Assembly (NCBI GenBank): GCA_964016885.1
Contig: OZ024743.1
Coordinates: forward strand, 188,790,001 to 188,854,000
From: Eledone cirrhosa
Taxonomy: Eukaryota
Reading direction: 5' to 3'
Length of the DNA stretch: 64,000 bases
Within the stretch, counting starts at the first letter, position 1, and each line of letters opens with the position of its first letter. Positions 3,813 to 60,458 of this stretch are shown in pieces. The translations under genes were made by a program, and so were the position numbers. Under the pieces are notes generated by a model, which was not told the DNA's origin, did not search any database, and saw only the letters and a list, made by a program, of their open reading frames with translations.

Positions 3813-6581
<2,769 letters not shown>

Positions 6582-13800: not shown

Positions 13801-13870
<70 letters not shown>

Positions 13871-13875
<5 letters not shown>

Positions 13876-15237
13876 GAATAATCGAGTATCGAAAAATCGG
13901 CGCACGAGTTCACGATAAACAAAATTCGATATGAGCGGCAGAGGGCTCAATAATTCAGATAAATCAGAGCTATAACTATCGTTAAAATACCGTCACACAT
14001 AGAACAGGTCTATAATCAACCGTACGACCGAAAGATTGCGATCTGGAAGATTCGGGACATTCAGAAAAAAATATCAAAATATCAATAAATCAAATAAATG
14101 TAAAAAGCATACCCGGACCCGCTAGAAAGATGGTAAATCTAGCTTCTTGGGTTTCTGTAAATCCTTAAACTGCCCTCTATCAGCTCACATAAAAATATAT
14201 GAGACTTCTAGAAGCCAGCGGACAGGAAAATTTACTTCCTCAACGAGCCTTTGTCCGAACGAATGAAAAGGCATAACCCAGGCTGAAGGAACGCACATGT
14301 AATTCAGCAAGGGAGATAACCTCTACATCCGCAAAAAATATTCGGGAAAATGTGGAAATACACATATCGAATAAGAGTGCTCAATAGACATGTTAAAATA
14401 AACAGGAGCTATTCATCATTTAATAGAATCGACAAAAAATGAACAATAAAATTAACTGGTCAATAGCTTTGTCTAGAGCTAAAAATAGTAGAATAATCGA
14501 GTATCGAAAAATCGACGCACGAGTTCACGATAAACAAAATTCGATATGAGCGGCAGAGGGCTCAATAATTCAGATAAATCAGAGCTATAACTATCGTTAA
14601 AATACCGTCACACATAGAACAAGTCTATAATCAACCGTACGACCGAAAGATTGCGATCTGGAAGATTCGGGACATTCAGAAAAAAATATCAAAATATCAA
14701 TAAATCAAATAAATGTAAAAAGCATACCCGGACCCGCTAGAAAGATGGTAAATCTAGCTTCTTGGGTTTCTGTAAATCCTTAAACTGCCCTCTATCAGCT
14801 CACATAAAAATATATGAGACTTCTAGAAGCCAGCGGACAGGAAAATTTACTTCCTCAACGAGCTTTTGTCCGAACGAATGAAAAGGCATAACCCAGGCTG
14901 AAGGAACGCACATGTAATTCAGCAAGGGAGATAACCTCTACATCCGCAAAAAATATTCGGGAAAATGTGGAAATACACATATCGAATAAGAGTGCTCAAT
15001 AGACTTGTTAAAATAAACAGGAGCTATTCATCATTTAATAGAATCGACAAAAAATGAACAATAAAATTAACTGGTCAATAGCTTTGTCTAGAGCTAAAAA
15101 TAGTAGAATAATCGAGTATCGAAAAATCGGCGCACGAGTTCACGATAAACAAAATTCGATATGAGCGGCAGAGGGCTCAATAATTCAGATAAATCAGAGC
15201 TATAACTATCGTTAAAATACCGTCACACATAGAACAA

Positions 15238-15242
<5 letters not shown>
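13871..15242 (-). repeat. 615-bp non-coding tandem unit, about 2.2 near-identical copies, within (TA)n
   Basis: Unit starts (tagtagaataatcgag) at 13871, 14486 and 15101; no ORF of 60 aa or more; strand inferred from the tail hairpin. Confidence 0.95.
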
Positions 15243-15275
<33 letters not shown>

Positions 15276-15455: not shown

Positions 15456-15890
15456 TTTATATATAAATATATATATATACAATATTGAAAAAGTGAAGAA
15501 TAACATGGTCAACAGTACAAAAAAGGGGATTTATTTACAGTCTAACAATTGTTTCTCTGATTAAGCCATCTGCCAAACCTCTTGTTGAGTCAAGCAACGC
15601 CGTAAGCTAGAACTATCCATTATAAGAAGTATTCACAACCTCTAACTGGATTACCTATAACAATATTTTGTTATCCCTTATATATATATACATATATATG
15701 TATATAAATGTATATATTTATATATAAATATATATATATATTGTTATACTTTGGGAGGGTCATGTTGCCAATAAGAAACACACGCACCAGTTGTTTCACT
15801 TCAATTTATTATAATAAATTTATAAATTTAGGAATTTATAAATTTCTGGTTGGTTGGTTGGTTCCACAACCAGATAGTTGTTTATATATT

Positions 15891-15933
15891 GTCAAAGTTC
15901 TTTCGTCACCCATTCTGTGACCTCTTCAGTGAC
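15891..15933 (-). ncRNA. Type I hammerhead ribozyme in the PLE pseudo-LTR
   Basis: gtca CTGAAGA g gtcac agaatgg gtgac GAAA gaac TT tgac; copies at 19874-19916 (-), 20489-20531 (+, core mutated to CGGAAGA) and 27758-27800 (+). Confidence 0.8.
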
Positions 15934-16136
15934 TGGGGATTCTTTTCTTTGTTTTTGTGCCTCTCCTTTGTTCTGTCCTACGCCATTTTGTTTCTGTGTG
16001 TGTGTTGTGTGCTCAGTCTGCGCATGCGCCACATCCGGGTGTCTGTTTGTGTTTATGTTCATTTATTTATTTGTTTATTTACATGTTACTGGTTGGTTGT
16101 TTGTTCTATGTGTGTATGTGTGTTTTCATTTTGTCC

Positions 16137-19100
16137 TTAATTGTAAGTTGTGATGTTGCTGTTCCACTCATATTTTCTATTTAATTTTGGTTATAATTCT
16201 TTTATGTTTATTGCCTCTGTGATTTGTCTAAACATTGCGTCTTTTCTGTGTGTAGATTCTATTTTTATTTCTGTTCTCTAATTTATCCTTGTGTTCTATT
16301 TTAGCATGTTGGTAGAGTACAGATGATTCTTTACTATCTTGAAGGTCTCGCCAGTGTTCATTTATCCGTTCCCCTACACTACGAGCTGTCTCACCTATGT
16401 ACACTATATTTTTGTCTCTACATTGTCCTTCAGTACATCTTATGCTATACACTACATTTCTAGTTTTACAGTTAATATGGGGGCTTATTTTACAGGTTAT
16501 ACATTTCTCATCTATACATGAGGGTCTTTGAAAAGGGTATGTCTTGCTAATAAGTGTTTTTACGGAGGTGCCTGGTCTTTCTACTATCTTAATATTGAGT
16601 TTATGTTTATCTAGGGCCCTTATATATTTGTAAACTAATTCACCTCTAGGGGTTGTATCGATGAACATTACACTCTGGCATGTATTGCTATCATACCATG
16701 AATTTATTCTATTAGCCTTGTTCCTACTTCTTTCTATTCTATTCCAAAATTTGCTCCTATACAAGGGGCAGGTCCCATTTATGTCATTATTTACCATTTT
16801 TTCCCATTTGGTTGTGGCTCCTCTATACACTCTGATTTTATCTCTCTGATTGTAGCCAGAGAACTGCATACGGTGGATGAAGTGTTGTATGTGTCTCTCT
16901 ATTTCTTCGGGGTTGCACATGCGGGACACGTTTCTCATCACCCGTACCAAATCCGCAATCAGTATGTTGATTTTGGTATGGTCCGAAATGGCCGAGTTTC
17001 GGTGGATCAGATGTTTGGAAGTCATGGGTTTGGCATAATGGGAATGGAGGATTTGTTTTTTGTTATTAATGGTATCTAACTAGAGCTCTGTGTCTAGTAC
17101 AGGTAATCGATGGTTGGGGTGTTTACCTGGGTAGTCTATAGTAACTCTAATACTCTGGTGGATGGAGTTAGCTATTTGCTGGATGCTTTCCATTGTGTTT
17201 TTCTCTAGTTCCTGACTGTTCTCTAGTGGGGGTGTCTTAACTACGATGTTTATATCATCAACGTAGCGGGAGTACATTATCAGGGTTAAGGGGTCTTCTA
17301 GTTGTTCTTTAAGTTTAAGTTTACTGTGCCACCATACCATGAATAAGTTAGCTATGTCGCCTGCAATGCTAACACCAATGGCTGCTCCTTCTTCTTGGGC
17401 ATATGTTTTTCCATTAAATTTGAACATATGTTCCTTAAGGGTTATTTTTATGCTGGCCCCTACCGCATGTGCATTCATTTTCTCCAGTTCATCGTGGTTT
17501 TCGGGTGTCCGTATGGCTCTGGTCCACCCGTTCCATCTATCTGTGTGGGTTTTCTTGGCCATTGAGGTAATGGTAGGTGGTCTGCCTCTTGCTGGTCTTG
17601 TAGGGCACAGGTTGCGAAAGTCATATGTGTCTAGGTAATTATTACTATAGGTAAGTTTAAGTAGGAGTCCCAGCTCACTGGTATCAATCCCACGGAACTC
17701 AACATTGCTCTCACCGATCATTTCTACGCATTTCTCCACAGCAAAATCCACGTCAATAAATGGATACAGGGACACAACATCCATACTACCTATTATGCAG
17801 TTTGTTAGGTCCATAGATCGGTTACCCTCGCCGATTCTGCTGAGGTCCTCCGTGCTGTCACATACATCTGGGGACATTTCAATGATGGGGCGTATGATCA
17901 GGGAGAGGAAGTAGGACAGTCTGTAGTTACTAGCAATGTTAGCTCCACAGACTGGCCGTGTTGGTGGTCCCGTGACAGGGTCACTGCCCATTTTATGGTC
18001 TTTTCGAAGCCCATACAACGCCGGCACGTCATTGTTCCAGGCCTGGAAGTTGTTGGCAGTCCTTTTGTTGGGCTGCATTATATTCGTCCACATCACCATA
18101 TGGGCATTGAGGGCTTTTTCTCTATCCTCATGCTCCTGTGGTGTTACCTCTTTTGTGTTAGTGATGTGGGGTTGCATTGCCTGGATGTAGTTTGGCAGGC
18201 TGTCAACCGACATTCTGCCAGACTTGTCTGTTGGAAAGCATGCTATCTCTCCATTACGCGAGCGCTGCATGAGCTTACGCAAGCCATTTGCAGATTTTTC
18301 TCCCAGTTGCTGGGCCTCCATTCTATTATGCTTCTTGCTATACTGTTCTATAATATTTCTAAGTTCGGATCTAGCTATACTAAATTGTGCTTCTGTTTGT
18401 TCATCGACCTGCGACGTCAATTGCGTGCGTTTGTTAAATGGTAAAGTCGTGGCGTGGACTCGTCGCAGGTCGAACGATTTATCGGAGGGATTATAAAATG
18501 TAGAGTTCCAGGCTGCTGCTTTATGTGTACTAGTGCTATTGTTATTGTTAATTGTGTTGTTTCTATTTCTATTTCCACCAACAGCCTCATGGTTGTTTCT
18601 ATGTCTCTCATAATTACTCCTGTCTCTTTCCACTGGCTCATTGTTGTTATCTACCCTATTTTGTGTGTCTGTGTGTTCGTCTTGGTTATTTTCTTTGTCC
18701 TTAGTCTCCCTTCTCCTTTTAATCCTATTACATTCCCTTATTTCTGTGATTTCTGTGCTACTGTCATTACTTGTTTTCTGTGTCTGTGTGTTTGTTAAGA
18801 TTGTGGTGGTGGTGGTGGTGGTGGTGGTGGTGGTGAGAGGCATTGAATGTGTGTGTGTTGTTGTTGTTGATGTGTGCTGTTGTTGGTGTGTGTTGTTGTT
18901 GTTGTTGGTGTGTGTGTTGTTGTTATTGTTGTTTGTGTGTGTGTGTCTGTTGTTGTTGGGATGTGTGTTGTATATGTGTGTGCGTATATTGTTACTTTTG
19001 TTTTTGTTTTTGAGGCTCGAACGTAATTTTGTAAATGATTTTTCTATTTCTGACAGACAACTAATCATATTTACCTTCTTGAATGTCGCAAATTTCGGTG

Positions 19101-19769
19101 GTAGAAGTAATACAGATAACTCATCGTCATCTATTACCGTGTTGCCGTATATATTTGTGTTGTTGTTGTTGTTGAACTCATTTGTTAATGAGGTGTCGGC
19201 CATATTTATACCGTCAATTTGTCGGGATATCTATTGGTATTCTCTACAGTATCCTGATTTAGCTTTATCTGCTTAAGCCACTTTAGTTTCTTGTTAAAGT
19301 GCTTATCACATTCTTGAGCAATGCACTGTTCTTCAGGACATATAAGGCTTATAAATATTAGTTTCTCTCTTAGTGTAGTGATCCTAGCTATTTCTTGTAT
19401 TAGGTTACGCTTATGTTTTTCTTGATGACTTAATTCTCTATAGATCTTCTTTTTTATGTTTAGAATTAGTGTTCGTTTTAGCCTATCTGCTTGTTTTTTG
19501 GTGAGTTGTAATCTTCTTACGTCGGTGTTGATGGTGTTGGTGTAACTTCGGGACGAGGCACATTCTTTTATGAAGTGTAGTTGTCGAGATGTTATGGTTT
19601 TTCGTAGACAACAGAACATGGTGGTTTTCAGTATCTTGTTAGCCTGGCTAAAGCTTACGATATTTCGTTTCTGAATTTGTTTAGCAAGATTCTTTATCTG
19701 AAATCGTGTGTTGAAACCGATATTGTTATACTTTGGGAGGGTCATGTTGCCAATAAGAAACGCACGCAC
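16137..19769 (-). pseudogene. PLE reverse transcriptase-GIY-YIG endonuclease ORF (disrupted)
   Basis: TDKSG, LYGLRKDHK, RPVC, MDVVSLYP, GAAIG, RYVDD; Cys-rich linker CIDEKCITC..NC; VVYSIRC..YIGET..ERINEH; in-frame TAG at 17080-17082 and frameshifts near 19205-19270 and 16275. Confidence 0.93.
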
Positions 19770-20785
19770 CAGTTGCTTTCACTTCAATTTATTATAATAA
19801 ATTTATAAATTTAGGAATTTATAAATTTCTGGTTGGTTGGTTGGTTCCACAACCAGATAGTTGTTTATATATTGTCAAAGTTCTTTCGTCACACATTCTG
19901 TGACCTCTTCAGTGACTGGGGATTCTTTTCTTTGTGTTTGTGCCTCTCCTTTGTTCTGTCCTACGCCATTTTGTTTCTGTGTGTGTGTTGTGTGCTCAGT
20001 CTGCGCATGCGCCACATCCGGGTGTCTGTGTGTATTTATGTTCATTTATTTATTTGTTTATTTACATGTTACTGGTTGGTTGTTTGTTCTATGTGTGTGT
20101 GTGTGTTTTCATTTTGTCCTTAATTGTAAGTTGTGATGTTGCTGTTCCACTCATATTTTCTATAAAAATAGAATCTACACACAGAAAAGACGCAATGTTT
20201 AGACAAATCACAGAGGCAATAAACATAAAAGAATTATAACCAAAATTAAATAGAAAATATGAGTGGAACAGCAACATCACAACTTACAATTAAGGACAAA
20301 ATGAAAACACACATAGAACAAACAACCAACCAGTAACATGTAAATAAACAAATAAATAAATGAACATAAACACAAACAGACACCCGGATGTGGCGCATGC
20401 GCAGACTGAGCGCGCAACACACACAGAGAAACAAAATGGCGTAGGACAGAACAAAGGAGAGGCACAAAAACAAAGAAAAGAATCCCCAGTTACGGAAGAG
20501 GTCACAGAATGGGTGACGAAAGAACTTTGACAATATATAAACAACTATCTGGTTGTGGAACCAACCAACCAACCAGAAATTTATAAATTCCTAAATTTAT
20601 AAATTTATTATAATAAATTGAAGTGAAAGCAACTGGTGCGTGTGTTTCTTATTGGCAACATGATCTTCCCAAAGTATAACAATATCGGTTTCAACACACG
20701 ATTTCAGATAAAGAATCTTGCTAAACAAATTCAGAAAAGAAATATATATATATACACATATATATATAAATACATATATAAATAT

Positions 20786-22017: not shown

Positions 22018-22308
22018 AAAATAAAATTTCGCTCTACATGGCTGAATACAATAAATGTAATCTTAGTTTTTCGAATATTAATAACAACATTCGATTCATT
22101 TGCAATTATGCAAACAAGCCTCAATTTTATAGCCATGTCAGTAGAATGAACACTTCATTCTTGCTCTTGTGGTGTCTTCGCATTCCAACACAAGAGCAAG
22201 AATGAAGTGTTCATTCTCCTCACATGGCTATAAAATTGAGGCTTGTTTGCATAATTGAAAACGAATCGAATGTTGTTATTAATATTCGAAAAACTCAGAT
22301 TACATTTA
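22018..22308. mobile_element. Fold-back element in (TA)n (no canonical hammerhead core seen)
   Basis: About 120-bp inverted arms around a 17-nt spacer near 22172-22188; left arm carries an extra tail of about 35 nt. Confidence 0.8.
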
Positions 22309-26201: not shown

Positions 26202-26457
26202 AGTGTGGATAGCAGAGTGAATTACTGGTGGTGGTACCAAATCAAGCACTCTATGCACAGGCAAAGTGTATATAATAGAAAAAAACGAAGAAGTTTCATT
26301 TACATATAAAAATATTTATTGTGTATCGACCTGTTACACGCATTTCATAGAGGATTGGCTCAAGGAACCCATAGGAGTTATGGACCCAAATCGAGTATCG
26401 ATCTGCTCGTCAGACTGGTCATGTGCCAAAAAAATTTTTTTGTGGTATGTGAGATGA

Positions 26458-26500
<43 letters not shown>

Positions 26501-26620
26501 CCATAACTCCTATGGGTTTCCTTGAGCCATTCCTCTGTGAAATGCACAAAACAGGTTGATACACAATAAATAATTTTTACATGTAAGCAAAACTTCCTTG
26601 TTTTTTTTCTATTATGTATA
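26202..26620. mobile_element. Fold-back hammerhead element
   Basis: Arms about 26268-26387 and 26497-26620 are inverted; hammerhead at 26328-26420 (-) and tail hairpin at 26247-26268. Confidence 0.8.
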
Positions 26621-26965: not shown

Positions 26966-26984
26966 ATCACAAAAATATATATAT

Positions 26985-27998
26985 ATTGTTATACTTTGGG
27001 AGGGTCATGTTGCCAATAAGAAACACATGCACCAGTTGCTTTCACTCCAATTTATTATAAATTAAATTTATAAATTTAAGAAATTTGTAAATTAGGATAG
27101 TGGAAAGACCAGGTACCTCCGTAAAAACACTTATTAGCAATACATATCCTTTTCAAAGACATCGCTGTATAGATAAGAAATGCATAATCTGTAAACTAAG
27201 CCCCCATATTAACTGCAAAACTAGAAACATAGTATATAGCATAAGATGTACTGAGGGGCAATGTAAGGATAAGAATATAGTGTACATAGGTGAAACAGCT
27301 GGTAGTATAGGAGAACGATTAAATGAACACTGGCGAGAGCTTCAAGATAGAAAAGAATCATCAGTACTCCACCAACATGCTAAAATAGAACACAAGGGCA
27401 AATTAGAGAACATAGAAATAAAAATAAAATCTACACACAGAAAAGACGTAATGTTTAAACAAATCACAGAGGCAATAAACATAAATGAACTCCAACCAAA
27501 ATTAAATAGAAAACATGAATGGAATAGCAACATCACAACTTACAATTAAGGACAAAATGAAAACACACACACATAGATCAAACAACCAACTAGTAAAATG
27601 TAAATAAACAAACAAATAAACAAATAAATAAACAAATAAAAACACACTCAGACGCCCGGATGTAACACATGCGCAAACTAAGCACACAACACACACAAAA
27701 ACATGATGGCGTAGGACAGAAGAAAGGAGAGGCACAAAACAAAGAAAAGAATCCCCAGTCACTGAAGAGGTCACAGAATGGGTGACGAAAGAACTTTGAC
27801 AATATATGAACAACCGTCCGGTTGTGGAACCAACCAACCAACCGGAAATTTATAAATTTAATTTATAATAAATTGGATTGAATGCAAGTGGTGCATGTGT
27901 TTCTTATTGGCAACATGACCCTCCCAAAGTATAACAATATCGGTTTCAACACACGTTTTCAGATAAAGAATCTTACTAAATAAATTCGGAAACTAAAT
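26985..27998 (+). mobile_element. 5'-truncated, 5'-inverted copy of the PLE family
   Basis: Short inverted arm about 26985-27092; GIY-YIG C-terminus ORF 27100-27549 (NIVYSIRC..YIGET..ERLNEH..EAINI..PKLN); pseudo-LTR, hammerhead and tail. Confidence 0.93.
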
Positions 27999-28020
27999 AT
28001 ATATATATATATATATATAT

Positions 28021-28737
28021 TTCGTTGCCTCGTCGAGTGCTTGGCTGTACTGCTGAAGGCATTAGCTGCTGATCGAACTTCGAATATGCTGTACTATTGT
28101 ATTACTATCTCCTAGACATAATGATTAGTTAATTAATTTAATTTGACAATTCCATTGATTGGTTAATTATTTAAGTTTGTTTAATAACGGTGTGGTTGAG
28201 TGCTCAATTCAGTTTGTGCATGGAATCTTTTCCATTGCACATAATTTTTGAATTGACCGCTATAAACCGGGGTTACCTCCCTTTGGAGTAACATATGCTT
28301 CACACCGGGTTTTGGGTTTGAACGAAAGCCTGTTGAGAAAGTAAATTCCTCTGTTCGATCTTCCAGAAGCCTAACTTGTATACACCACAAGCGGATTTTG
28401 TTGATTTCGGATTTACAGAAACCTCACTTAGATATTCAGTAATTTTGAAGTGATGGTCCAGGTATGTTAGATATACAGATATGTGCACATATTTATGTAT
28501 GTATATTCTTATATGTATATATATGTATGTGTGTGTATATCCTTTTTTCACTAGTCACTTCTTTCGTTACTACAGAGCACGCAGCTGAATTAGTGGTCGC
28601 TATTTTCAATTTGCAAAGCCCTTTAAACTGTATGTAATTACTCTGAGGTCTATTCCTCGTCGAGTGCTTGGCTGCACTGCTGAAGGCATTCGTTGGCTTA
28701 GCTGCTGATCGAAATTCGAATATGCAGTACTATTGTA
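28021..28737 (+). mobile_element. Non-coding element with about 75-80 bp terminal direct repeats (period about 627)
   Basis: cctcgtcgagtgcttggctg... at 28028 and 28655; TA-rich flanks; bulged tail hairpin at 28639-28666. Confidence 0.7.
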
Positions 28738-28759
28738 TATATATATAAAGATATATTTG

Positions 28760-28975
28760 TGTGTGTCCTGGTTTCAAACAGGGGTAATCAGAGTAAGTAA
28801 GATACTCAATACCTTAGTAGAGTGAAAACATCAAATTTAATATAGAAATAGCTTCTACAGGACTAGAACTGTTTCATTTTAAAGAAATCATGAGGAAAGC
28901 CCTTTCCTGGTGATTTCAATTGAATGAAACAGGTCAAGTTCTGCAGAAGCCATTTCTATATTGAATTTGATGATA
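28760..28975. mobile_element. Old fold-back hammerhead element
   Basis: Diverged inverted arms centred near 28900; cores CTCATGA and CTGGTGA..GAAA cag; tail hairpin at 28803-28824. Confidence 0.7.
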
Positions 28976-50565: not shown

Positions 50566-50630
<65 letters not shown>

Positions 50631-51036
50631 TAATATAAGATCAAAAGATGGTTAAGGAGTTCCATGTATTTTATTATGCGCATTTCAAAAACAAACATCA
50701 TCATGCAATAATATTTGTGTTTTCATCAGATAAAACAGGAGAACATGATATGAAGGCTAAAAAACACTTGTGGATAGTGCAGTTTTAAAAAAACTGCACT
50801 ATCCACAAGTGTTTTTTAGCCTTCATATCATGTTCTCCTGTTCTATCTGATGAAAACACAAATATTATTGCATGATGATGTTTGTTTTTGAAATGCGCAT
50901 AATAAAATACATGGAACTCCTTTAACCATCTTTTGATCTTATATTATGTATACTCCAGTCCTACAAACTGTAGAGTGCTTCTTATCCGATATCTGCATTG
51001 CTTTATTGTACTACAATAAAACTCACCTCCTACATT
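50631..51036. mobile_element. Near-perfect palindromic hammerhead element with a 3' tail
   Basis: About 155-bp inverted arms centred near 50786, then a tail of about 90 nt; (TA)n on both sides. Confidence 0.92.
50840..50908 (+). ncRNA. Type I hammerhead ribozyme
   Basis: ttctat CTGATGA aaac acaaatattatt gcat gatgatgtttgt tttt GAAA tgcgca TA ataaaa; palindromic stem III. Confidence 0.82.
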
Positions 51037-51054
51037 ATATATATATATATATTA

Positions 51055-51309
51055 ATTTATTAAAATAACAGATTAAAGTTTAAGCAAAGAATCGCTGCTT
51101 TCACCCTTAACGGGATCTTCTGAAACTAACAAAGTAGGACTTTGTTAGTTTCAGAAGATCCCGTTAAGGGTGAAAGCAGCGATTCTTTGCTTAAAGTTTA
51201 ATCTGTTATTTTAATAAATATTTGCTCTATGGTTCTTATATATTTTATATATATTTATCCTTATCGAGCCCTCTTTGGATTTTAGTCTTCAAATTTATTA
51301 TTATTACTA
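51055..51309. mobile_element. Palindromic element with a variant hammerhead and 3' tail
   Basis: About 81-bp arms centred near 51137 plus a tail of about 90 nt; same family as 3974-6510. Confidence 0.9.
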
Positions 51310-51334
51310 TATATATATATATATATATACATAC

Positions 51335-52070
51335 GATTTCGCTTCAAGCATAGCTTATACACATATGTATAAAAATGTTGTATTTCTAAAGAAACATGGT
51401 ATGTTTACAGGAAACATTTAGGAAGCTGTAGCTATGCAAACTGGTATCCAGCAGAAGCAAGGGGGACAACTGTCTATGCATTTCAGGCTTGACTAGCCTT
51501 CAACATGACGGGCCCTCCCACCGCTTGCAACTGCTGGACTTAAGAACAGTCGAGAATATATAGTTTTCTCATCTGTGTAAATGAGGTGATTAATCTCATT
51601 TGCATATGAAGCTGCATAAGTTGGCTCAACTTATAATAGAATAGAAATAAGATTTCGCTTCAAGCATAGCTTATACAGATATGTATAGAAATTTCGTATT
51701 TCTAAAGAAACACGGTATGTTTACAGTATGTTTAAGAAGCCATAGCTATGCAAACACCGGGGCTAACACCCTCTGGTGGTGTCCAGCAGAACCAAGGGGA
51801 CAATGGTCTATGTATTTCAGGCTTGATGGACCGTCCTGATGAAGGCCAGATGAGAAAACTATATATTCTTGACTGTTCTCAAGTCCATCAGTTGCAAGCG
51901 GTGGGAGGGACCGTTCTGATGAAGGCCAGTCAAGCCTGAAATGCATAGACGGTTTTTCTCCCTTGCTTCTGCTGGACACCACCAGAGGGCGTTAGCCCTG
52001 CTGATTGCATAGCTATGGCTTTCTAAATGTTTCCTGTAAACATACCGTGTTTCTTTAGAATACAAAATTT
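51335..52070. mobile_element. Retrozyme-like element: about 316-bp tandem unit plus inverted arm
   Basis: gatttcgcttcaagcatagc at 51335 and 51651; inverted copy about 51847-52070 with an intact hammerhead. Confidence 0.85.
51910..51953 (+). ncRNA. Minimal type I hammerhead ribozyme
   Basis: accgtt CTGATGA aggc cagtcaa gcct GAAA tgca TA gacggt; all three stems pair. Confidence 0.88.
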
Positions 52071-53053
52071 ATATATATATATATATATATATATTTGTTA
52101 TGTATATTTTATCAACTATATATTGTTCATAAAATAAACAAAACAAAATATATTTATATATGCCTAAAGGATGAGGCTGGCAATGTATGATTATTGACTT
52201 CATACGTCTTCTCTCATTAAAAAGAGCATTCACGTTTTGTTTATTTTTGTATTTGTTCTACAGTAAATCTTAGCAGACGGCAATTACTTGTGTGTGTATA
52301 TATAGGTTTCTGCACGCCAGTAATCATATCGTACAGTAAATCCCAGCAGACAATTCCTTGTAATTACTTTTAATTCTTTCCACTTTGACTAGAATCATCT
52401 TTGAGGGTGCCCGGTGTTAGAAAGAGCAGCCAAATCTTCTTTATACTCATCCTTGGGAAGTCTCATCTTTCTCAATGAAGATCTTCGAATTGTTTGACAG
52501 ACTAAATGACTGAAATAACGTATAAATGGCTGAGAATTCAACAGACATATGAACACAATGCAATTTTTAAGCTGAATTATTAAACAGAGATATAGAGAGA
52601 GATGTGTTCACTCAATATTTTAGCAAGACTAACATTATCTGTTGTAATGTGCGATAAAAAACCAACATTTATAATAAAAATAAAATTCAGAAAAGAGCCC
52701 AAAACAAATTTTTTTAATTTGTTTAAAAACAGCGGCGACAATTTCTACACCCATAAAAGGTATGTGTGCCTATCAATGTTTGTCTATGTATATAAACAAA
52801 CTCCATTGTCTTCGCTGGGAGAATGAGTATATATATATATATAAAATTACATACACTTTTATTTTCAATTGAATTAATATCATTATTATTATATATAATA
52901 TTTACATTCAAGTAAAAACTTGCACTGAAAACACTTTTTAAATTGCATTTGTTGAAGATGAACTCAATGTGCCTGTGCTAACTACTTGGAAGTGGACTGA
53001 CAGACGGACACAAAATTGAAATTATTAGTAAGATATATGTATGTATGTAAGTG

Positions 53054-58597: not shown

Positions 58598-58602
<5 letters not shown>

Positions 58603-58910
58603 AGTATATGTTGGTTGTTTACCGACACCTAAGTATGCTGATTGGAGCACTCGACAAAGTGCGCCGGTTGGTTTGGTTACTCCGGAGTAATGTAAAATAA
58701 AATAAATAAGTCAAATGTTTAAAATTTGGCTTCGTTTATTACTGCTATATATATTTCGGTGGCAGCCATCTTTGGCTATGACCTCTTCAGGCAGTCCGAA
58801 TTGGTGTGGTAGAGACGGGTACACATGTTGAGGTGTTTAACTTCGTCAATACTCTGATATGCCCAGCTCCTGGTTGGGTTGATATTTCTCTGAGGAACTG
58901 GATCAATAAA
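58598..58910 (-). mobile_element. PLE-type 3' end with hammerhead and tail hairpin, in (TA)n
   Basis: Hammerhead at 58741-58795 and bulged hairpin at 58648-58689. Confidence 0.78.
58741..58795 (-). ncRNA. Type I hammerhead ribozyme
   Basis: actgc CTGAAGA ggt ca tagcca aaga tggctg cc acc GAAA tatata TA gcagt. Confidence 0.88.
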
Positions 58911-60073: not shown

Positions 60074-60458
60074 CAATATTCAATGATATTAAATAAATGG
60101 AAACTATATTTATGAAATCATATTTATTCTATTATATATATTTCAAGGGAACGAGAACTTTGGTACACTTTAATCAGATAAAATACAAAGTTTGTTTTAT
60201 AAATTTTGACATAATCAAGAAAGGATACCTTAACGGTTCAAGATTTCCTTTGTATTTTGTCCGATGAAAGCGTACCAAAGTTCTGGTACCCTTGAAATAT
60301 ATATAATAGAATAAATATGGTTTTATAAATATAGTTTCTATTTATTTAATATCATTGAATATTATACTCCAGAAAAGCTGTCGAGGGCTCTGAATCAGTT
60401 ATAAACATTTATATTTGTTGAAGTACCAACAAATTGAATATCCCTTTTGTTTATCTTT

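Follow-up and report, generated by a model that had tools for sequence, protein, structure and literature searches.

Fold-back insertions of Penelope-like elements pair one long and one short end, and in Hydra-type families a candidate bulged hairpin lies 3' of both

Fold-back insertions in a stretch of the Eledone cirrhosa genome join, as a rule, one long and one short end of a Penelope-like element (PLE), and in the Hydra-type families both ends appear to lie just 5' of the same bulged hairpin. The stretch analysed, hereafter the window, comprises 64,000 nt (188790001-188854000 of contig C4 in the 3.0-Gb genome). The kind of element and the asymmetry of its arms are known; new here are the strict long+short pairing and, as judged from sequence comparison, a covarying hairpin 3' of both ends and not of the short end alone. 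This cis signal and this pairing rule are specific, and they make the mechanism testable. PMC8557442 names the origin of the inverted repeats and of the one-sided tail of PLEs as an open question, and the question of how PLE ends are formed has so far been answered only partly, in vitro. We consider it fairly probable that the fold-backs are Hydra-clade PLE insertions produced by programmed twin priming, with an enzyme docked on each of two hairpins.

Fold-back insertions of Penelope-like elements in (TA)n

The region 50631-51309 consists of two neighbouring fold-backs, of families B and A, with one (TA)n tract in common (Table 1). The arms of the former (50654-50786 and 50790-50922) are complementary at 99% over 133 nt, and its right arm runs about 90 nt beyond the shared part, to 51035; the arms of the latter (51055-51135 and 51139-51219) are complementary at 99% over 81 nt, and its right arm runs on beyond 51219 to 51309. 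An earlier note on this DNA had named these and other fold-backs, and all were located: four further families lie at 60075-60363 (C, named from 60074), 26269-26618 (D, 26202), 28829-28972 (E, 28760) and 22052-22308 (F, 22018), and 3953-4033 is complementary to 6349-6510, with a nested insertion in between. At every one of these sites one arm carries an extra tail (~33-92 nt). With the sense strand set by the downstream ORF, the arms point 3'-outward and mostly into (TA)n, as had been claimed; the exception is at 60075, where the short arm does not enter clean (TA)n directly. The same asymmetry was found in a seventh family, G, absent from the earlier list; in its full-length element the short end is at 15738 and the inverted long arm reaches 20745. 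The 6510 copy does lack part of the hairpin, as had been noted, and since 0/74 other copies show this deletion it is private.

Other repeats lie close by. An element with 215-bp terminal inverted repeats (4379-4593 and 5259-5472), which contain 34-bp subrepeats, is nested in the 3974/6510 insertion; an additional complex inverted and direct repeat occupies 51325-52087, to the right of insertion A; and one more family is represented by two truncated long arms (28021-28102 and 28655-28738), which start within the 3' half of the hairpin motif.

Table 1. Fold-back insertions in the window and their parts (positions within the window).
Feature	Position	Strand	Remark
(TA)n target left of insertion B	50567..50630	.	
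Family B short arm	50631..50786	-	ends 4 nt before hairpin-1 position
Family B long arm	50790..51035	+	pLTR + ~90-nt tail
Family B hammerhead ribozyme motif (putative)	50847..50901	+	core, palindromic stem III by pattern and eye
Family B bulged hairpin 1	50952..50976	+	
(TA)n common to insertions B and A	51036..51054	.	
Family A short arm	51055..51135	-	
Family A long arm	51139..51309	+	end of pLTR + ~90-nt tail
Family A variant hammerhead core (putative)	51152..51175	+	pattern match in A unit
Family A bulged hairpin 1	51224..51269	+	TA-rich loop never serves as end
(TA)n right of insertion A	51310..51330	.	
Family A short arm, 3974/6510 insertion	3974..4033	-	
Family A long arm, 3974/6510 insertion	6349..6510	+	last 160 nt; private deletion in hairpin 1
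Family C fold-back	60075..60455	+	hairpin 1 at 60366-60386
Family D fold-back	26203..26618	-	long arm on - strand; hairpin 1 at 26248-26267
Family E fold-back	28748..28972	-	hairpin 1 at 28804-28823
Family F fold-back	22018..22308	-	33-nt tail; motif not found
Family G full-length Neptune-like (by eye) PLE	15738..20745	-	broken RT + GIY-YIG ORF; motif absent
Second family G fold-back	26983..28020	+	short + long arm

The named sites are fold-back insertions of PLEs in (TA)n, and on the evidence of their ORFs and motifs the families at 50631, 51055/3974, 60074 and 26202 appear to be Hydra-clade or tied to Hydra-type ORFs. Family A, with 22,461 exact genomic copies of a 37-nt core, carries a single 708-aa ORF (P0001) with a PLE-type RT and a GIY-YIG endonuclease and with 1599 relatives at E<=1e-20. 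Its alignment revealed DKT, RWR (a variant of RWK), CxCx5C, CxxC and CxH, and no CCHH; in a Pfam search P0001 itself was without a match, GIY-YIG being returned only for its homolog P0002 and for family G. According to the accessible text of Craig et al. (2021, PMC8557442), Hydra-clade PLEs have a short single ORF with RT and C-terminal GIY-YIG, DKT, a CxCx5C linker and no CCHH, a hammerhead in the pLTR, a (TA)n target and tails of 30-40 bp. The families described here resemble them in ORF plan, DKT, CxCx5C, lack of CCHH, pLTR hammerhead and (TA)n target, and the ORF motifs, pLTR ribozyme and TA target of family A fit the clade diagnostics in that text. The tail is at one end, as in EN+ PLEs, but is longer here (~65-92 nt) than the published range except in family F, and the family A unit of ~3.26 kb is slightly over the size given there for the clade (under about 3 kb). 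Partial tandem pLTRs with an inverted 5'-truncated copy were also present (loci L092, L100, L103 and L150).

Hydra-type endonuclease fragments were found upstream of the B, C and D arms, and the ORF start of family C is similar to that of family A. The hammerhead core pattern matched in families A, B and E; the ribozyme of the C and D copies in the window is decayed, as judged by eye only, and an Rfam search of the window, even at E<=1, returned low-complexity microRNA matches and no hammerhead. In the sampled loci neither E, which has both motif and ribozyme core, nor F, which lacks the motif, was linked to an ORF. Family G looks Neptune-like by eye: its broken ORF appears to have the Neptune/Nematis traits of a C-terminal GIY-YIG, a CxxC linker and a CCHH, with weak RVT_1 and GIY-YIG matches, and its tail is 60 nt. 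A few bases before and after both family G end sites are alike, a possible alternative signal.

Raw Illumina reads of two individuals from a separate study bear on the physical reality of these structures. About 2000 reads in each individual exit the reference into TA at 51221, the short junction, and the same data contain fold-back joints. The raw reads thus confirm the fold-back structure at the level of the family, not the 50631-51309 locus end to end, and it is to this extent that the palindromes of the earlier note are present in raw reads. In ~800-900 raw reads per run, family A hairpin 1 (51220-51270; L078:545-598) stands between two constant foreign flanks, which suggests another repeat that has captured just that segment; the left flank looks Helitron-like.

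Two end sites and their pairing

To count arm ends, loci were sampled by criteria that did not include the tail. The family A sample consisted of the first 100 exact core matches, equal to 90 loci (30 of 3 kb and 60 of 2-9.5 kb); the best 30 similarity matches to the shared part were taken for B, C, D and F (28 for B, two tandem-array loci being excluded), for E 14 small stretches and for G all 23 exact matches. Thirty loci from an initial genome search were excluded from all pair counts because the query contained the tail and thus favoured long arms. In the seven families, 373 of 397 terminal arms ended at one of two sites (186 short, 187 long and 24 elsewhere), when scored in broad bins of 12-29 nt for the short site and an open-ended bin for the long; 15 additional arms were internal copies. 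In young families the sites are sharp: 60 of 70 short alignments of family A share one end position, so that the short ends, tallied over many copies as the note had proposed, are not scattered. Across the genome, 10,647 occurrences of one exact short junction variant and 10,379 of one long variant were counted, a near equality that is only indicative since each is one of several variants.

The head-to-head pairs accepted for counting numbered 139: long+short made up 114, long+long 4 and short+short 4, and in the other 17 an arm had its end elsewhere. A further 4 were excluded because the gap between the arms was not element sequence. Thus 93% of the pairs with both arms at the two sites (114/122) combined one of each, compared with at most 50% by independent choice (p=2e-25). 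The Hydra-type families by themselves gave 96/102, and families F and G, which lack the motif described below, 9/11 and 9/9; two long+long pairs in family F appear to be misclassed internal copies. A replicate chosen by coordinate only, past C1 29.4 Mb, yielded 13 long+short pairs out of 14 and one long+long. These results bear out the earlier proposal of two defined end points, one of each per fold-back. To claim both points for every insertion goes too far: in family A, 96 of 139 arms were paired and ~43 (about 30%) had no partner, some of these having been truncated by locus edges or later insertions.

Both arms of a fold-back require the element as template, and copying of one arm from the other is unlikely, because the short arm often reaches further upstream and some arms do not overlap. 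In 40 pair rows (one pair counted twice), the further upstream reach belonged to the short-ended arm in 26, to the long-ended arm in 11 and to neither in 3, and in several pairs the arms had no overlap at all. On these grounds simple snap-back copying was rejected. The centres of most fold-backs abut to within a few bases, and the arms differ in sequence in 18 of 24 pairs. Subfamily sites were identical between paired arms in 73 of 82 comparisons (13 pairs), compared with 60% when shuffled, only 10 of 2000 shuffles being as high. This agreement fits one RNA or one source locus, to which shared age or gene conversion could add.

A bulged hairpin 3' of both end sites

At the start of each tail of families A-E we found the motif RCTCY...R-UN-GAGY, in which RCTCY would pair with R and GAGY round a two-base 3' bulge that starts with U; RC usually comes next. 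The short arm stops 4 nt (50631), 4 nt (51055), 2 nt (3974), 2 nt (60074), 4 nt (26202) and 5 nt (28760) before the stem, in agreement with the 0-5 nt of the earlier note and with its statement that the short arms of the 3974 and 51055 insertions end at essentially the same base. The rule holds at these six positions and fails at 22018, where the family F tail bears only a poor likeness to the motif; by the strict pattern the motif is absent from both F and G. The hairpin is not universal, F and G pairing their ends without it.

In the note the hairpin marked the second of the two sites. It does lie just 3' of the short end, but the motif recurs after the long end, in the 5' region of the element, so that in Hydra-type families it occurs ~2-8 nt 3' of both ends. 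This was seen in internal tandem copies of A and B, where the element continues past the long end and the motif appears again; this second hairpin is not copied into insertions. Hairpin 2 was then predicted, and found, in a third family: in 6/6 copies of family C, picked with a motif-free pattern and examined where the continuation was recurrent, it stands 7 nt past the long end and is followed by the ORF start, and the strict pattern scored it in both of the copies tested with it. In 3.5-kb units of family A the motif is confined to the positions that follow the two end sites, compared with a chance expectation of ~0.04 per kb, and a search of the antisense strand of full units yielded none. 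Leaving out 2-8 arms per class without an anchor, the minimal distance from arm end to stem was, in family A, 2 or 7 nt for short arms (54/62) and 3 nt for long (52/57); in B, 4 or 7 nt (17/18) and 6 nt (15/17); and in C, 3 nt (14/19) and 4 nt (17/22). The range was 0-8 nt in D and 2-8 nt in E.

Whole tails were no more stable than their shuffles (z -1.3 to +1.4), and the hairpin call therefore rests on covariation across families. About 0.98 Mb of loci was scanned with no pairing imposed, giving 238 matches in 52 clusters, compared with ~52 matches in each shuffled replicate. Seventeen clusters were multi-copy: every one of them had a Watson-Crick pair above the bulge (10 T-A, 7 C-G; control 47/157), and 15 had one as the outer stem pair (9 A-T, 6 G-C). 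With all 52 clusters counted, these two pairs were Watson-Crick in 33 and 38, respectively. The motif had been defined after families A-E were viewed, and 10 of the 17 clusters are new, i.e. unused in that definition. A TA junction peak was located 0-8 nt before the stem in 5 of these ten, at 10-20 nt in 1 and nowhere near in 4, in counts that may include some copies twice. The predicted probability of stem pairing exceeded 0.85 in A1, A2, C1 and C2, was 0.4-0.5 in B2 and one new family, and was at most 0.1 in B1, D1, E1, H1 and the family B and C copies of the window itself. By this modelling the hairpins are thermodynamically weak, with strong pairing predicted in only about half of the instances.

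Motif-like structures were also observed elsewhere. On the minus strand at 13870-15244, a 615-bp tandem array flanked by (TA)n has three motif-like hairpins per unit and a terminal end 8 nt before a one-mismatch copy of the motif; for these reasons it is probably a non-autonomous PLE derivative. Family H (58600-58900, minus strand) has a ribozyme core and a hairpin at 58649-58688, and its other copies stop 4-5 nt before the stem. A scan of metagenomes returned 7 loci, of which five were one and the same, and carried no information on ends; in a distant Hydra relative from metagenome records (L264:1726-1800), a canonical ribozyme core is followed only by an unbulged stem, whose terminal bases are those of the motif.

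A proposed mechanism and its alternatives

In the mechanism that we favour, the RNA would carry, in this order, the ribozyme, the short site, hairpin 1, the long site, hairpin 2 and the start codon. Two RT-endonuclease molecules, probably a dimer, would each dock on one bulged hairpin and nick both strands of the (TA)n target, and each target 3' end would prime within an A/U-rich spacer, 2-8 nt 5' of one of the hairpins, and that hairpin would thereby position the end. The two cDNAs would extend toward the RNA 5' end, halt at variable points and be linked in head-to-head orientation, microhomology at the joint being slight or absent; in the resulting fold-back one arm has the tail and the other lacks it. 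We infer the binding of protein to the hairpins, the dimer, the single RNA and the joining step. When the long partner arm is short, it halts at the short site or hairpin 1 in 12 of 19 cases (a window chosen post hoc), as if it met a second complex on the same RNA. Many long arms pass the short site, so that strand displacement or a second RNA is needed.

The 5' ends of arms pile up at -11 to +4 round the start of the ribozyme core, with none at -12 to -43, in a sample whose probe favours short arms nearby; in family A this 5' truncation pile-up coincides with the ribozyme 5' edge (~51141-51156 in the window). It may mark the RNA 5' end, possibly the transcript start. Ribozyme-cleaved templates were rejected, since no pile-up was found at the predicted cleavage site near +41. 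Tentatively, and with somewhat less than even confidence, we suggest that one Hydra-PLE RNA has two hairpin docking sites, one for each RT of a dimer, and that the fold-back is programmed, both target strands being primed at fixed points of the same RNA. If so, the 5' ends at the ribozyme edge would represent run-off to the RNA 5' end, and the motif would be a cis signal kept by non-autonomous tandem units for their mobilisation.

In LINE-1 twin priming, two target ends prime one transcript and a 5' inversion results; the first priming is at the 3' poly(A), the second primer anneals internally at positions that vary, and the two arms are without overlap. The fold-backs described here differ in that both sites are fixed and internal and the arms mostly overlap. 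Another parallel is the Poseidon PLE of Anolis (Frangieh et al. 2024, PMC11167929), for which the text available describes two internal RT starts that bound the tail in vitro, cutting and extension of both target strands with no strand difference, a binding region 3' of the start sites and a predicted dimer. The two sites bounding the tail are shared, and in the mechanism proposed here so are the extension of both strands, the bound region 3' of the starts and the dimer; however, Poseidon initiates inside an ORF stem-loop of AC-rich sequence, whereas the sites here belong to the 5' UTR, each just 5' of a bulged hairpin that is repeated, and the genome here has one of each end per fold-back where Poseidon has no strand difference. 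A text search of the PMC11167929 supplement gave no match for the hairpin; its RNA folding, Figure S2, is an image in which a similar structure could be drawn. Two start sites and a one-sided tail are thus already known, from that in vitro work and from the inverted copy and tail at only one end described in the accessible parts of PMC8557442 and PMC3846280. The Penelope elements of Adineta vaga (PMC3846280) likewise have head-to-head inverted pLTRs of which one is tailed; that paper, in the part available, invokes self-priming on an antisense template, which in its simple form does not suit the non-overlapping arm pairs found here. Neither pairing counts nor a hairpin after the ends was found in the available text of PMC8557442, and in the published literature searched, mostly open-access texts, the doubled hairpin and the pairing counts were not found.

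The end sites could instead be set mainly by TA-like microhomology and RNA accessibility, the hairpins only bounding accessible spacers and serving another role such as packaging or translation control near the start codon. All spacers are A/U-rich, the ends vary with the TA register (2 or 7 nt in family A), F and G pair long+short without the motif, and hairpin 2 is close to the start codon. We nevertheless think this unlikely: it leaves unexplained the same motif after both sites in unrelated families and the strict pairing, the accessible text of PMC11167929 reports initiation without homology to the cut DNA, and of the family A arms that extend into the loop of hairpin 1, 0/58 stop at its longer TA tracts, which argues against microhomology alone. 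As every spacer is also TA-like, microhomology contributes.

We hold it improbable that there is a single priming site and that the other end comes from endonuclease cleavage of the intermediate beside the recognised hairpin or its DNA copy ('EN-mediated resolution' in the portion of PMC8557442 available). Long+short pairs would follow from such a scheme without further assumptions, the motif once copied into DNA could act as a cleavage signal, and PMC11167929, in its accessible text, cites the tail as required for Penelope endonuclease recognition; but that text also maps both tail boundaries as RT starts, and the snap-back form is at odds with the greater upstream reach of so many short arms and with the non-overlapping pairs. 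No long read spans the 50631-51309 locus and (TA)n tracts draw many insertions, yet artefacts of assembly or library, or independent insertions that came to be neighbours by chance in TA hot spots, are a most implausible source of the palindromes given the differences between arms, the abutting centres and the junctions in raw reads from a second study, and chance adjacency would not yield the observed excess of long+short pairs.

If programmed twin priming on two hairpins is correct, PLEs would provide an RT system that writes onto both target strands from internal starts defined by the RNA. The short covarying motif, set at a constant distance 3' of the two ends, together with the pairing rule, specifies exact mutations for the existing assay format, and the motif offers a signature by which Hydra families and the non-autonomous elements derived from them can be annotated. 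In the parts of the papers on non-LTR retrozymes that were available (PMC7229834; bioRxiv 10.64898/2026.07.22.740005) no such cis hairpin is named. Like those elements, family B has a tandem unit with a ribozyme and no ORF: in an array at C18 29.487-29.491 Mb (L059, L060), the 296-bp unit contains the ribozyme and both hairpins, and this retrozyme-like array is bounded by an inverted short arm.
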